From assembly GCA_000965745.1 (NCBI GenBank), contig CP009479.1, forward strand, positions 288,001 to 352,000: a stretch of DNA of 64,000 nt, in the 5' to 3' direction. The position numbers were made by a program, and so were the translations under genes. Source of the DNA: an uncultured archaeon. Lineage in GTDB: Archaea; Thermoplasmatota; Thermoplasmata; Thermoplasmatales; Thermoplasmataceae. Positions 14,908-19,408 of this stretch are shown piece after piece. The notes under the pieces are model-generated. The model made no database searches, was not told the DNA's origin, and was given only the letters and a program-made list of their open reading frames with translations. Each line of letters starts with the position of its first letter. Within the stretch, counting starts at the first letter, position 1.

Positions 14908-16122
14908 TCACTCATCGGTCGCCGCGTCCCCTTTATCGTCCGGATTCCGGGTAATTTCCCTGAAATGCGTTGCAAGATAAAGGAAGATGAGCGACAGGGC
15001 CACAATAATGCTCAGTGTGACTGTTGTCCTGAGAAGGGATGCCTCGGTGAGAGTCAGGGTTACGAGGATTCCGCCCGAAACACCGCCAATGAACTGCCCG
15101 GAAAACTGCATTGTGTTGTATATGCCTATGTTTGCCCCGTAGCTGTCCCTCTTTGATATCCTCGATATCAGCGGATAGAAGACTATCTCGTATATGGAGA
15201 ATCCCGAGAAGAAGACTATGGCGCCGACGAAGAACCAGTTCCTGTTGCCTGTGTAGTGGGGGGCCAGGAAGACGAGTGGTACGCTTACGAGCATTACCGC
15301 CAGTGATATGACGGAGAACATGGTGGTCTTGCCACGGTCAGCGAACCCTGAGGACCCGACTGCAACGATTCCGCCGATGATTACAGGCCAGAGAAGGAGG
15401 AGATCATACCCATGGGTGCCGTAGGCGCTGGTGCCGTAAAGTGGAAGGTAGTAGAAGAATACAATCATGTAGAGGGAGATCAGGAAACCGACAGCCCCAA
15501 CAAGGATTGCCCTTCCCTGGATCCTTCCTGCGGACCTCCTCTCCTTCGCAGTCATCTCAGGTTTCCTGTATTTTACCCTCATCATCGGGAATATCCCGGC
15601 GATTCCGAGTATCCCGGACAGCAGGAAGAGGAATGAGGGGCCGAATATTCCCGACAGGTACGGGCCGAGCACAAGGCCGACCATGAAGGAGAACCCTATT
15701 GGGATTCCGAGAATTGCCATCGCGATGTTCCTCCTGTTCTGGGGGACGCTCTCCTGAACCATTGCCATCCCGGATGAAGTCACCGCTCCGGCACCTGCAA
15801 CGAGCCTTCCTATGATCAGCCCGTATATGTTGAACGGATGCCACGCAATGAGATTCCCTATGATGTAGGGTATCATCCCCAGAATGATCACATTCTTCCT
15901 GCCGAACCTGTCTGAAAGTATGCCGAAGGGTGCCTGGAAAAGTGCCATGGTAAGGCCATAGGCACCAAGCGCAATACCGATGAGAATAGAAGAGTCAGTG
16001 TATATTTTCCCATAGAGTGTGAAAACAGGAACAACAAGGAATATTCCAAACATCCTCAGAACTTCAATCACCGCTACTGCGGAAATCATCTGCTTCTGAT
16101 TTCTGTCAAATGCCCTCATCAT
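14908..16122 (-). CDS. MFS transporter (YajR-like)
   Basis: LRMFGIFLVVPVF, GILSDRFGRK (motif A), ~12 TM helices. Confidence 0.88.
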   Translation of the reverse strand: MMRAFDRNQKQMISAVAVIEVLRMFGIFLVVPVFTLYGKIYTDSSILIGIALGAYGLTMALFQAPFGILSDRFGRKNVIILGMIPYIIGNLIAWHPFNIYGLIIGRLVAGAGAVTSSGMAMVQESVPQNRRNIAMAILGIPIGFSFMVGLVLGPYLSGIFGPSFLFLLSGILGIAGIFPMMRVKYRKPEMTAKERRSAGRIQGRAILVGAVGFLISLYMIVFFYYLPLYGTSAYGTHGYDLLLLWPVIIGGIVAVGSSGFADRGKTTMFSVISLAVMLVSVPLVFLAPHYTGNRNWFFVGAIVFFSGFSIYEIVFYPLISRISKRDSYGANIGIYNTMQFSGQFIGGVSGGILVTLTLTEASLLRTTVTLSIIVALSLIFLYLATHFREITRNPDDKGDAATDE

Positions 16123-16250
16123 TGAGAACTACCACTCCGGAATGGCACATTTCTATTAAACGGTTAGTTTCAGGTTAATAAAATCGCAGAGTCCCCATGG
16201 TTCATTTCAGGGCGTTCAAAAGAGCAGTGCGAGAGAATGACAGACAAAAC

Positions 16251-16260
16251 TATTTATATC
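16251..16260 (+). promoter_or_regulatory. TATA box of the ilv leader transcript
   Basis: TATTTATATC preceded by A-rich BRE-like sequence, ~25 nt before GTG 16280. Confidence 0.6.
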
Positions 16261-16279
16261 GGAGAATACTGCACTGTTA

Positions 16280-16354
16280 GTGAGTCTGACAGCAAGTACC
16301 ACGGAACTCAACTTTTCAGTCGTCGGTATTTTGCAGATTATTATTGGACTCTAA
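16280..16354 (+). CDS. Putative ilv operon leader peptide MSLTASTTELNFSVVGILQIIIGL
   Basis: 24-codon GTG..TAA ORF at the predicted TSS; codons 14-24 encode V V G I L Q I I I G L; ends 44 nt before ilvB. Confidence 0.7.
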   Translation: MSLTASTTELNFSVVGILQIIIGL

Positions 16355-16398
16355 GCACGCGGCCAAGTGTTGACGTGTGTTTCATTTGAGGTGGTTTT

Positions 16399-18111
16399 TT
16401 GAGAGGTGCCAGACTTCTTCTAGATTCTTTGGCCCGGCGTGGGGTTGACACAGTATTCGGGATACCCGGGGGTGCGAGCCTTTCCATATATGAGGAGATG
16501 TCCTCAATGGATCTGCGGCACATCCTCGGAAGGCACGAGGGCAGCACGGTGTTCATGGCAGACGGTTTTTCCAGGGTCTCCCGGAAACCGGGCGTATTCC
16601 TCGGTACATCGGGCCCTGGAGCAACCAATGCAGTCACCGGTGTAGCTACAGCCTACACCGATTCTTCCCCGGTGATATGCATAACTGGGCAGGTAGCAAC
16701 GCAGTCCATGGGCAGGGATGCATTCCAGGAGGCGGATAGCTTCAACCTCATGGTTCCGGTGACAAAGTGGAACTTCAAGCTGAAGCATGGGGCGGAAATA
16801 CCCCGGGTGATAAACAGGGCATTCAGGATTGCGACCAGCGGCAGGTTCGGCCCGGTGGCGATAGACGTTCCATCGGATGTTGTGAGCAAAGAGGTGGACG
16901 AAGCCTCGATACAATGGGCTGATGAGCCCTCATTGGCAAACAGCTCTGACCTGTCGGAACTGGCGAATGCTGTCAGCATGATAAGAAACGCTGCAAAGCC
17001 TGCAATAATCGCAGGGGGCGGCGTAAGGTGGTCCGATTCCGGAGACGTTGTAATAAGGCTCGCCGAAAAAATAGGCGCTCCGGTTGTGACCACTGTCATG
17101 GGCAAGGGTGGAATACCTGAGGACCACCCACTGGCGCTGGGGACAACGGGAATGCATGGGAGGAGATCGTCCCACTGGGTGCTCAACGAGGCGGACCTTG
17201 TAATCGCGGTCGGAACCAGGTTCAGCGACAGGACGACAGGAAAAACGAGCGGGTTCCTGCCAAACGCGAAGGTCATCCACATAGACATAGACAGGGCGGA
17301 GATAGGGAAGAACATAACCGGCGTAGTGGGCCTCGCTGGAAATTCTGCAGATGTGCTTAACGCGATCATGAGCGGCCTTGATTATCAGGCGGAGTCCAGG
17401 AGCGAGTGGGTGAAGAAGGTAAGTGAGGTGAGGACGTTCTGCCAGTGCGATTTTGACCTCCCCGGGAATCCCATAAAGCCCCAGAAGCTGATGAGTTCAC
17501 TGTCTAGGCTTCTGCCTGATGACGCCATCCTTACAACGGACGTTGGGCAGCACCAGATGTTTGCCTCGCATTTCTTCGAGACAAGGGGCAGGAGGCAGTT
17601 CATAACATCAGGCGGCCTCGGCACAATGGGCTTCGGGTTCCCTGCTGCAGTGGGGGCAAAGATAGCCGCTCCAGAAAGGAAAGTGGTGAGCATTGTCGGT
17701 GACGGGGGATTCCAGATGAGCTATTCTGAATTCATAACGGCAGTCGAGAACGAAGTGCCTGTGTTCACCGTGATAATGAACAACCAGAGCCTCGGGATGG
17801 TGAGGCAGTTCCAGAAACAGTTCTACGGGAACAGGGTATACGCCGCTGATTACCGGAGAAGCCCCGACTTCGCGAAATTCGCTGAGGCCATGGGCGGAGA
17901 GGGTGTAACAGTGGAAAAGGCAAGCGAGATAAACGAGGCCATCGCGAGGGGGCTGAAGAGCGATGTCCCCTTCATCGCGGATGTCAGGGTGGACATAAAC
18001 GAGGACATACTGCCTATGACACCGCCGTGGATGGGGCAGGAAGGCACGATTTACGGAAGATGCAAATGGAGGGACGTGAAGGTTGAGGAGCCTCAGAATA
18101 TTGGCAACTGA
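16399..18111 (+). CDS. ilvB: Acetolactate synthase large subunit
   Basis: FGIPGG, RHEG, TSGPGATN, TDVGQHQM, SGGLGTMG, GDGG TPP motif; SD GAGGTG. Confidence 0.95.
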   Translation: MRGARLLLDSLARRGVDTVFGIPGGASLSIYEEMSSMDLRHILGRHEGSTVFMADGFSRVSRKPGVFLGTSGPGATNAVTGVATAYTDSSPVICITGQVATQSMGRDAFQEADSFNLMVPVTKWNFKLKHGAEIPRVINRAFRIATSGRFGPVAIDVPSDVVSKEVDEASIQWADEPSLANSSDLSELANAVSMIRNAAKPAIIAGGGVRWSDSGDVVIRLAEKIGAPVVTTVMGKGGIPEDHPLALGTTGMHGRRSSHWVLNEADLVIAVGTRFSDRTTGKTSGFLPNAKVIHIDIDRAEIGKNITGVVGLAGNSADVLNAIMSGLDYQAESRSEWVKKVSEVRTFCQCDFDLPGNPIKPQKLMSSLSRLLPDDAILTTDVGQHQMFASHFFETRGRRQFITSGGLGTMGFGFPAAVGAKIAAPERKVVSIVGDGGFQMSYSEFITAVENEVPVFTVIMNNQSLGMVRQFQKQFYGNRVYAADYRRSPDFAKFAEAMGGEGVTVEKASEINEAIARGLKSDVPFIADVRVDINEDILPMTPPWMGQEGTIYGRCKWRDVKVEEPQNIGN

Positions 18112-18328
18112 TGAAGAGGGTACGCTGCAGAGAACAATATTTGAGTTCAGCAGGAGGAACATACCCATAGGGAGGCTGATGTACAGCCATGAGAAAGATT
18201 CGGTCACCATGCACATAGGCGTGGAGAGGGATGAGGACGTCAACAGGGTGCTGAAGCACCTGAACAGGATATACGGCGTGAGAGACGTAAGTATACTCGA
18301 GAATGAGGAAGTGAGAGAAAAATGGTAA
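18083..18328 (+). CDS. ilvH: Acetolactate synthase small regulatory (ACT) subunit
   Basis: GTLQR...FSRRNI, LKHLNRI..V ACT pattern; lies between ilvB and ilvC. Confidence 0.8.
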
Positions 18329-19332
18329 AGGCATATTATGAGAAAGACGGAGATTTGAGCACACTTGACGGTAGACAGGTATCCGTCATTGGCTATGGAA
18401 TACAGGGAAGGGCCCAGGCCCTCAACTTGAGGGATTCCGGTGTGAATGTGGAAGTTGGCCTGAGGAAAGGCGGAGCCAGCTGGAAAAAGGCTGAAGAGGA
18501 CGGTTTCAAGCCCCTGACAGTATCGGAAGCCGCAGAATTAGGCGATGTTGTCATGGTACTGATACCCGATGAGGTACAGGCCGTTGTCTACGCGTCAGAG
18601 ATCGCCCCCGGGCTGAAAAAGGGAAACACGCTTGAGTTTGCCCACGGGTTCAACGTTCATTTCAGCAAGATCGTGCCGCCCGACGGCGTGGATGTTGTCA
18701 TGGTGGCGCCGAAGGGGCCCGGACAGATGGTCAGGCGGACGTACCTCGAAGGGTTCGGCACGCCAAGCCTTGCAGCAGTGGAAAAGGACCATTCCGGCAA
18801 AGCCTGGGAAACCGCAATGGCACTTGCAAAGGGGATAGGGGCAACCAGGGCAGGCGTTATAAAGACCACCTTCAGGGAGGAAACTGAAACGGATAACTTC
18901 GGAGAACAGGTCGTCCTCTGCGGTGGAGTCTCAGAACTGATAAGGAAATCGTTCAACTATCTCACATCCGAGGGGTACCAGCCTGAGATCGTGTATTTCG
19001 AGGTTCTGCATGAGCTGAAGCTAATCGTGGACCTGATCCAGGCAGGAGGACTTGAGAATATGTGGAACAATGTCAGCAACACTGCAGAATATGGCGGGAG
19101 AACAAGAGGTCCTGTTGTTGTCGACAGCGGAACAGAGGAGAAGATGAAGAAGATCCTCGCCGACATAAGAAGCGGCGCTTTCGCAGAGGAGTGGATGTCC
19201 GAGGTCGCAAAAGGGGTTCCAAACCTCGACGGCATGAGGAAAAAGGGCTCTGATGAAACCATTGAGAAAGTGGGAAAGGAGCTCAGGAGCATGTTCGTCA
19301 AGGGCGAGGAAGCTACTTCTGCAGCGAGATAA
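18322..19332 (+). CDS. ilvC: Ketol-acid reductoisomerase
   Basis: [35 protein letters not shown]. Confidence 0.97.
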
Positions 19333-19408
19333 GCTTCAGGAGGCCTCCAACCCATTTTTTCCAGCGGTTCAACAATAACTGTGCATTTTTCGGATGACCA
19401 GAGCAGGG

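Follow-up and report, generated by a model that had tools for sequence, protein, structure and literature searches.

A candidate branched-chain amino-acid-sensing leader peptide ahead of ilvB in an archaeon of the Thermoplasmataceae and in other families of the Thermoplasmata

Does a ribosome translating a short leader peptide report the supply of branched-chain amino acids to a biosynthetic operon in an archaeon? The question is raised by a stretch of 64,000 nucleotides from an uncultured member of the Thermoplasmataceae (contig CP009479.1, positions 288,001 to 352,000; the whole stretch is called the window), in which a 24-codon open reading frame (ORF) rich in valine, isoleucine and leucine (V/I/L) codons lies between a promoter and ilvB, the gene for the large subunit of acetohydroxyacid synthase (AHAS). 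A sequence-only reading of this DNA had proposed that the ORF mediates attenuation. The comparative analysis indicates that the ORF probably encodes a leader peptide that senses branched-chain amino acids and acts in cis. That 16280-16354 is the leader peptide gene of the ilvB-ACT-ilvC operon, with the stalling and unfolding logic proposed below, is held with confidence slightly above even, and the polarity and output assigned to it are tentative, being somewhat more apt to need revision than to stand.

The layout seen in the sequence-only reading was recovered in the DNA. The heptamer TTTATAT was read where a TATA box had been placed (16253-16259), a GTG is present at 16280, and translation of 16280-16354 gave V/M-SLTASTTELNFSVVGILQIIIGL-stop, with V/I/L at eight of the last eleven codons (codons 14-24; GTC GTC, ATT TTG, ATT ATT ATT, CTC). 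The claimed gap of 44 nt between the stop (16352-16354) and the TTG of ilvB (16399) was confirmed as well. The same ACAAA and TATA layout was found in three congeners and at locus L111. A transcription start at or next to the GTG is inferred from the TATA spacing alone; this spacing is 3 nt shorter in the window genome (G000) than in two congeners, so that starts anywhere in 16279-16283 are indistinguishable. In order to estimate how often such an ORF arises by chance, a crude gene map of G000 (2.23 Mb, 99% complete) was built for genome-wide counts. A comparable ORF, defined as 10-60 codons with at least eight V/I/L within an 11-codon window, was present in 27 of 1258 upstream regions (2.1%). 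The case from a single genome is thus only suggestive, and its significance comes from conservation.

Among 41 relatives searched with IlvB, three orthologues were congeneric, their proteins being 86, 73 and 70% identical to that of the window. The 24-codon frame, opening at [G/T]TG-AGTCTGA, was kept in all of them (G002, G001 and G003; loci L002, L003 and L004), and the stop occupied the same position in 4/4 species of the genus (g1), directly before the same hairpin. Synonymous changes were observed among the four ORFs (GTC/GTT, ATT/ATC, GGA/GGG, CTC/CTA), and the stop was either TAA or TAG. Between G000 and G002, codons 1-10 differed by four amino acids and codons 11-24 by one synonymous change. 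In the two more distant species the nucleotides in the middle of the ORF were rewritten, still encoding V-I-I-G-I-I and V-I-S-I-I-I. The sister genus (G131, IlvB 60% identical) carried an ATG-started 24-codon ORF at the same TATA distance, ending G-I-I-G-L-V-I-R and followed directly by a hairpin of different sequence; L111 likewise has a 24-codon ORF, with a hairpin of another sequence in the corresponding place. The conserved V/I/L-rich upstream ORF (uORF) that the sequence-only reading had proposed to look for in the Thermoplasmatales was therefore found in the whole genus, with synonymous changes, and in its sister genus, and lack of conservation, named there as a ground for refutation, is excluded by the 24-codon frame in these two genera and by V/I/L-rich ORFs in the wider class.

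For the class, 169 genomes of the order and 401 of the class were searched and 40 further ilvB upstream regions were inspected; a locus was counted when a V/I/L-rich short ORF lay between a TATA box and ilvB. In family f1 the leader ORF was present at 4/4 loci of g1 and at 1/1 of genus g16. It was also present at 6/6 loci in f10, 3/3 in f28, 4/4 in f30, 3/3 in f34, 2/2 in f37 and 1/1 in f38, at 3/5 in f14, where it is less V/I/L-rich, and at 3/3 in f6, where it has 34 codons and is led by a Shine-Dalgarno (SD) sequence. None was found at the 14 loci of f12 or the two of f29. V/I/L-rich ORFs thus precede ilvB in nine families of the class. The peptides are largely unrelated between families, with C-terminal tails such as GVLVDLRILRP, GVVVVI, LLVVLVVR, VVGIIIR and LLIIIVQ, and what is alike is the V/I/L composition and its position relative to the stop. 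The start codon was ATG in most families, GTG in f30, f38 and G000/G002, and TTG in two congeners. A TATA heptamer was recognised at 25 of 29 loci and ended 19-26 nt before the uORF start at 23 of these, the exceptions being L140 (30 nt) and the SD-led L006 (35 nt); among the 26 leaderless loci, 22 fell in the 19-26 nt range, L140 lay at 30 nt and three had no recognised TATA box. Since the start codon stands about 23 nt after the TATA box, the ORF is probably leaderless and is predicted to lie at the 5' end of the transcript.

Codon statistics were calculated on the last 12 codons of the ORF at the 29 loci (348 residues). Thymine occupied 65% of second codon positions, compared with 18% of first and 31% of third positions. 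The mean number of V/I/L codons was 7.6/12 in frame and 2.8/11 and 0.9/11 in the other two frames, which contained stops at 27/29 and 20/29 loci. Valine (81), leucine (76) and isoleucine (64) together made up 64% of the residues, while phenylalanine (4), alanine (6), methionine (1) and tryptophan (0) were scarce. Counted back from the stop, the V/I/L frequency was 0.34 at -1, 0.55 at -2, 0.79 at -3 and 0.86 at -4, and stayed above 0.45 out to -14, except for 0.34 at -11. Further upstream it was about 0.2, so that the upstream part of the ORF serves as an internal control. Given this composition and the frame bias, the ORF differs both from hydrophobic peptides in general and from RNA that is simply rich in U, and a membrane-peptide reading was rejected on the V/L/I-specific composition. 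These codon data support the reading of the uORF as a conserved, frame-specific carrier of Val, Ile and Leu codons between promoter and ilvB.

The RNA around the ORF was analysed by RNAalifold on the four g1 leaders, by listing the helices that can pair in 4/4 species, and by pair counts. Three helices, H1 to H3 (Table 1), were predicted, with 99% of cells paired for the three together. H1 (8 pairs, 96.9% of cells paired; 12 bp in L003) can form in 4/4 species and would be a 5'-terminal helix over the leaderless landing region. H2 (9 pairs) was paired throughout in the four species, its three changes being one-sided and wobble-compatible and none of them doubly compensated, and H3 (7 pairs) was 100% paired. 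Beyond the genus, a hairpin spanning or abutting the uORF stop was predicted in 26/26 leaderless loci (mean z-score -2.6, mostly -2 to -5); in the minimum-energy folds the first paired base lay between 9 nt before and 2 nt after the end of the stop. According to duplex scores, a helix between the 5' end and the distal codons is kept with different sequences in several families: by eye, UCAAAUAAC pairs with GUUAUUUGA in one f30 species, and an AAC repeat pairs with a GUU repeat in another.

Based on these features, the following mechanism is proposed. Transcription would begin some 23 nt downstream of the TATA box, on the GTG or a few bases from it at most, and the leader ORF would be translated first, without a leader of its own. 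When charged Ile, Val or Leu tRNA is scarce, the ribosome would dwell in the last 11 codons, as the frame-specific codon selection across the class suggests, and its position would set the folding of the 119-nt leader through H1 and H2. A ribosome at V14-I22 would end at or before the base of H2, which would stay folded; one reaching L24 or the stop would have to open H2 at its 5' arm and H1 at its 3' arm. Stalling would thus keep H1 and H2 folded and the operon on, and completed translation would unfold the leader and lower expression, either because the freed single-stranded RNA pairs with the ilvB ribosome-binding site (RBS) or because transcription ends at the U tracts (UUUCAUUU and T6) between H2 and the ilvB start. 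The geometry was worked out on the assumption that the ribosome reaches 12 nt past the first base of its A-site codon. In g1 a ribosome would reach H2 only when stalled at L24 or, marginally, at I22, and one standing on the stop codon would have to melt the 5' arm of this hairpin. About 85-90% of V/I/L codons lie where a stalled ribosome leaves H2 folded, a figure worked by hand on one representative locus in each of five lineages. The drop in V/I/L frequency at -1 and -2 fits stalled ribosomes that halt short of H2. We commit to this polarity since the geometry, similar to that of the trp leader, is the only reading that gives expression on starvation without extra elements.

Several points weigh against this proposal. 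The transcription start, the translation of the leader and the regulation are all inferred from sequence. GTG, or TTG in two congeners, is a weak start codon for a leaderless mRNA, and the TATA spacing in G000 equally allows transcription to begin 2-3 nt inside the GTG. As the variation in g1 is one-sided and no compensatory pairs occur, H1, H2 and H3 are compatible with the data and nothing stronger. The window leader folds no more stably than its shuffles (z-score -0.14), and H2 reaches a z-score of -0.2 in L001. The ribosome-free leader folds like the 'on' state, so that repression would need a high ribosome flux or would be confined to the time of transcription. For the 3' arm of H2, once freed, no conserved partner was found in g1, and we know of no archaeal termination that responds to upstream RNA folding. 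In line with the proposed geometry, the predicted unpaired probability of the ilvB RBS over the 26 loci was 0.544 with no ribosome, 0.539 with a ribosome at -10 codons and 0.441 with one at the stop, being lower at the stop than at -10 in 19 loci and higher in 4; the change is small (0.10) and the loci are not independent. Freeing any GC-rich arm beside the RBS may give the same effect.

Two alternatives deny the ORF a sensing role. It could be a chance open frame in a conserved promoter-proximal region, either a regulator site or an untranslated structured 5' untranslated region (UTR). The 2.1% background in G000 speaks for this, as does the conservation of H1 and H2 as sequence in g1, since an RNA or DNA element that is not translated could be conserved in the same way. 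However, about nine families with unrelated nucleotide sequences share a three-base periodicity, an absence of stops specific to the frame and the V/I/L enrichment, the start codon keeps a fixed distance from the TATA box, and an Rfam search of 16100-16500 gave no match beyond a meaningless sub-threshold one. A chance frame is accordingly considered highly improbable. The ORF could, on the other hand, be translated and sense nothing, acting as a ribosome-loading or coupling cistron, as a stabiliser of the mRNA 5' end or as the source of a small hydrophobic peptide that has a function of its own. Archaeal transcripts commonly begin with a leaderless cistron, and the f6 peptides, with about 18-19 hydrophobic residues, could span a membrane; yet the residues are specifically V, L and I, the hydrophobic stretch in g1 is only 13 residues long, and the peptide sequences diverge between families while codon class and position from the stop are kept. 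Moreover, no other strongly single-residue-enriched upstream ORF was found in G000 before an amino-acid biosynthesis gene, and none at ilvD; the top-ranked ones precede a major facilitator superfamily (MFS) transporter, spermidine synthase, hemerythrin, dihydroneopterin aldolase and lipoate ligase, and are accordingly regarded as chance. A translated ORF with no sensing role seems a distant prospect.

Two further alternatives accept the sensor and differ in its output. In bacterial-style transcription attenuation, H2 with the U tract or T6 would be a terminator, and a ribosome stalled at the stop-adjacent Ile and Leu codons would block H2 and cause read-through. H2 is followed by the U-rich tract and then by the conserved T5-T7 run, and the operon itself ends in a palindrome and T6. 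T runs occur at gene ends in G000 and rarely in RBSs: T5 or longer runs were present in 20.6% of 60-nt windows after stop codons against 6% inside genes, with a peak 0-30 nt after stops, and sense-strand runs of T6 or longer were depleted in coding sequence. Only 8 of 857 GGTG-led ORF starts had T5 or more between SD and start, whereas ilvB keeps T5-T7 in 4/4 species, and T6 as an ordinary RBS spacer was rejected on this count. T runs behave as gene-end terminators in G000, with a distribution that archaeal oligo-U terminators would be expected to produce, and a termination component may be at work in g1. The f6 leaders (L006 3140-3400(-), L113 and L122), in which the ORF ending LLIIIVQ is followed by a C/U-rich spacer, place a GC hairpin and CUUUUUUC (U6) between the ORF and ilvB. 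The closest bacterial analogue, ilvBNC of Corynebacterium glutamicum, is a transcription attenuator with a leaderless leader peptide (PMC11857589). Nevertheless, when 28 nt were masked at each control codon and the leader was refolded, the downstream hairpin was never removed and no antiterminator emerged in g1 or in L006 and L113 of f6; in L122 a terminator-like hairpin was weakly predicted in every state. The helices conserved in the four g1 species include no alternative pairing of the H2 arms, and a classical antiterminator was rejected on both results. Stalls at V14-I21 would leave H2 free and bring about termination on starvation, which is the wrong polarity. In addition, the hairpin has no U tract after it in f10, f28, f30, f37, f38 and g16, hairpin-type terminators are not enriched in the window (15 found, 18.8 expected), and the terminator consensus scan of the window did not pick up H2. 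For archaeal intrinsic termination, oligo-U alone suffices. Attenuation of the bacterial type is consequently judged improbable. The sequence-only reading had ribosomes stalling on uncharged branched-chain tRNAs in control of the operon: the sensing leader peptide is well supported by the comparative evidence, and the bacterial-style attenuation is not supported, given that no antiterminator was detected. Translational attenuation of the mycobacterial poly-Cys type, in which a segment of the leader ORF pairs with the ilvB SD and a stalled ribosome masks the segment and frees the RBS, is also rated a poor prospect. The mechanism is established in bacteria (10.1101/834739) and, needing no U tract, could apply to all the lineages. 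In 4/4 species six base pairs can form between 16314-16319, immediately upstream of V14, and UUGAGG of the SD at 16386-16391, five of the six upstream positions being variable, and the first Leu codons of the f6 ORF (CCUUCUU) match GGAGG of the SD, with a z-score of -3.9 in L113. Yet complementarity between uORF and SD was no better than for shuffled SD windows over the 29 loci (mean z-score -0.17), and an anti-SD inside the uORF was rejected for this lack of statistical support; the pairing at 16314-16319 is a weak one, of about -4 kcal/mol at 45 °C, which crosses H1 and is unpopulated in partition-function folds, and as long as no ribosome is on the leader its SD is predicted to stay largely unpaired (0.59-0.90 in g1). 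A hungry-codon frameshift reaching ilvB was likewise rejected, as the alternative frames end inconsistently, in f34 immediately, and so was a second uORF across H2, which has a different end in each of L001-L004.

The preferred reading, a sensing leader peptide whose ribosome sets the state of H1 and H2, may be put in its widest form: leaders sensing charged Ile, Val and Leu tRNAs in at least nine Thermoplasmata families would share a platform with no antiterminator and with a stop that abuts a hairpin, and the ribosome would either keep the leader folded (on) or expose it to oligo-U or aCPSF1/FttA termination or to RBS occlusion (off). In that complete form we regard it as rather unlikely, though worth stating.

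How this leader relates to known systems may be considered next. The enterobacterial leader peptides IvbL (ilvBN), IlvL (ilvGMEDA) and LeuL are SD-led and work through alternative 1:2, 2:3 and 3:4 hairpins and an intrinsic terminator. The archaeal leader resembles them in the clustering of end-product codons in a short ORF between promoter and first gene and in a stop placed so that the terminating ribosome covers the next RNA segment; the 2:3 alternative and the hairpin-dependent terminator are unsupported in it. Morbach et al. in 2000 reportedly described an attenuator with a leaderless leader peptide, IlvL, for ilvBNC of C. glutamicum. The likeness to the archaeal locus extends to the operon type (ilvB, small subunit, ilvC), a short Ile/Val/Leu-rich peptide, a transcription start that coincides with the leader start codon or lies one base away (predicted in the archaeon), the lack of an SD, and a 5'-terminal helix over the initiation region comparable with predicted H1. 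In the three-hairpin model of the corynebacterial system, the 15-residue leader peptide has a leaderless start and a 5' hairpin occludes the initiation region (PMC11857589). That leader measures 292 nt, its antiterminator and its hairpin-plus-U terminator are defined, and its short terminated transcript was demonstrated, whereas the archaeal one has 119 nt, no detectable antiterminator, a hairpin that abuts the stop and no sequence similarity, in a host whose termination does not rely on hairpins. The leaderless poly-Cys short ORFs of mycobacteria, for which Canestrari et al. demonstrated the duplex of stall region and RBS by mutation (10.1101/834739), are a further parallel. Here too a leaderless sensory first cistron would head a biosynthetic operon, the readout would be ribosome dwell on end-product codons and the output would need no terminator; unlike them, the archaeal leader lacks significant complementarity between uORF and RBS. 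In Escherichia coli, TnaC senses free tryptophan through its nascent peptide and controls a catabolic operon by Rho-dependent termination. In tna and in Salmonella mgtL/mgtA, the position of the ribosome at the leader end exposes stop-adjacent RNA to a termination factor; to our knowledge archaea lack Rho, and for a version of the proposed mechanism that depends on aCPSF1/FttA these two would be the nearest analogues.

According to a study from 2021, no attenuation or antitermination mechanism was known in archaea (PMC8448881), and a full-text literature search found no later report of archaeal leader-peptide attenuation, in keeping with the earlier remark that such attenuation is barely documented there. 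Archaeal gene regulation after transcription initiation is nearly uncharted. If true, the proposal would describe the first ribosome-mediated attenuation mechanism in Archaea and give direct functional evidence for a regulatory use of archaeal transcription-translation coupling. It would illustrate how bacteria and archaea came to share one solution, whether by separate origin or by persistence, and would add an unannotated functional small ORF to many Thermoplasmata genomes. The 119-nt leader is a compact system for asking whether archaeal ribosomes report amino-acid supply to the gene under transcription, how the signal is read without terminators of the bacterial type, and whether coupling of transcription and translation plays a regulatory part in archaea.

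Table 1. Features of the leader region and of the operon, in positions of the window; helices are predicted.
Feature	Positions	Strand	Remarks
Archaeal promoter	16244-16259	+	BRE-like (transcription factor B recognition element) purine-rich ACAAAAC 16244-16250 and TATA box TTTATAT 16253-16259; read directly
Leader ORF (ilvL-like)	16280-16354	+	24 codons, GTG start, TAA stop at 16352-16354; sequence and translation read
H1, 5' arm	16282-16289	+	GAGUCUGA, at the predicted mRNA 5' end
Control-codon cluster	16319-16351	+	V14 V15 G I17 L18 Q I20 I21 I22 G L24; Ile-dominated in genus g1
H1, 3' arm	16344-16351	+	UUGGACUC, over codons 22-24 of the leader ORF
H2 hairpin	16355-16378	+	arms 16355-16363 and 16369-16378; bulged A 16373; begins at the first base after the stop
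U-rich tract	16380-16387	+	UUUCAUUU, directly 3' of H2; U5 in L003
ilvB Shine-Dalgarno	16388-16394	+	GAGGUGG; GAGGTG invariant in 4 species
T6 run	16395-16400	+	between SD and TTG, overlapping TTG; T5-T7 in congeners
ilvB (AHAS large subunit)	16399-18111	+	TTG start; Pfam TPP_enzyme N, M and C domains, E 1e-39 to 1e-51
H3 hairpin	16401-16419	+	GAGAGGU / ACUUCUU, arms 16401-16407 and 16413-16419; ilvB codons 1-7
81-aa ACT-domain protein, probable short AHAS regulatory subunit	18083-18328	+	Pfam ACT_AHAS_ss 24.4 bits, below cut-off 27
ilvC (ketol-acid reductoisomerase)	18322-19332	+	Pfam KARI_N and KARI_C
Operon end	19339-19360	+	palindrome GGAGGCCUCC (GGAGGCCTCC), 6 nt, then T6

The operon had been named ilvB-ilvH-ilvC. 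Its first and last genes were identified as such by Pfam, and ilvH is only plausible, the ACT_AHAS_ss score of 24.4 bits falling short of the 27-bit cut-off. The gene upstream of the leader encodes a divergent MFS transporter. The IlvB search of genome contigs returned mostly bacterial homologues, and the nearest named relative was a Thermoplasmatota metagenome-assembled genome (63%). The LeuA_dimer domain (PF08502) was not found in G000 and is present in 14/14 control genomes; the organism may be able to synthesise Val and Ile while lacking a route to Leu, which would agree with the predominance of Ile among its control codons.

At the start of ilvB, the third positions of AGA, GGT, CTT and CTT within codons 2-7 are invariant in the four species, whose IlvB proteins are 70-86% identical. 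These invariant positions point to a constraint at the RNA level on the ilvB initiation region. As an alternative to H3, ACUUC may pair with the ilvB SD. In f6, a 20-nt segment immediately upstream of the ilvB SD shows almost perfect complementarity to the leader 5' UTR (CCCAAGGGGGAUAAAAGGCA), the uORF SD included, and could pair with the ilvB SD instead.

Other ilvB loci of the class showed different arrangements. Many f12 genomes have two tandem ilvB-like genes, and many matches contain a single in-frame TGA; a V/I/L leader ORF is absent from these loci, where just a short 5' UTR comes after a TATA box. At L005 (G034, family f3), a TATA box is followed by a 52-codon ORF rich in Ile and Thr (8 each), which lies upstream of ilvB and crosses its start in another frame; it may be yet another leader design. 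The genera g3, g19 and g20 (12 f1 genomes; L007-L010, L114-L121) carry another leader, with an SD-led uORF of 6-9 codons ending R-F-I-stop, or in some genomes R-L-I, S-F-I or G-F-I. This uORF lies within an invariant stretch of 22 nt, AGGTTTATCTAACATCTGTGGCG; in 10/12 a T5-T7 run begins 0-3 nt downstream. A ribosome awaiting Ile-tRNA at the last codon would directly abut a polymerase on the T run.

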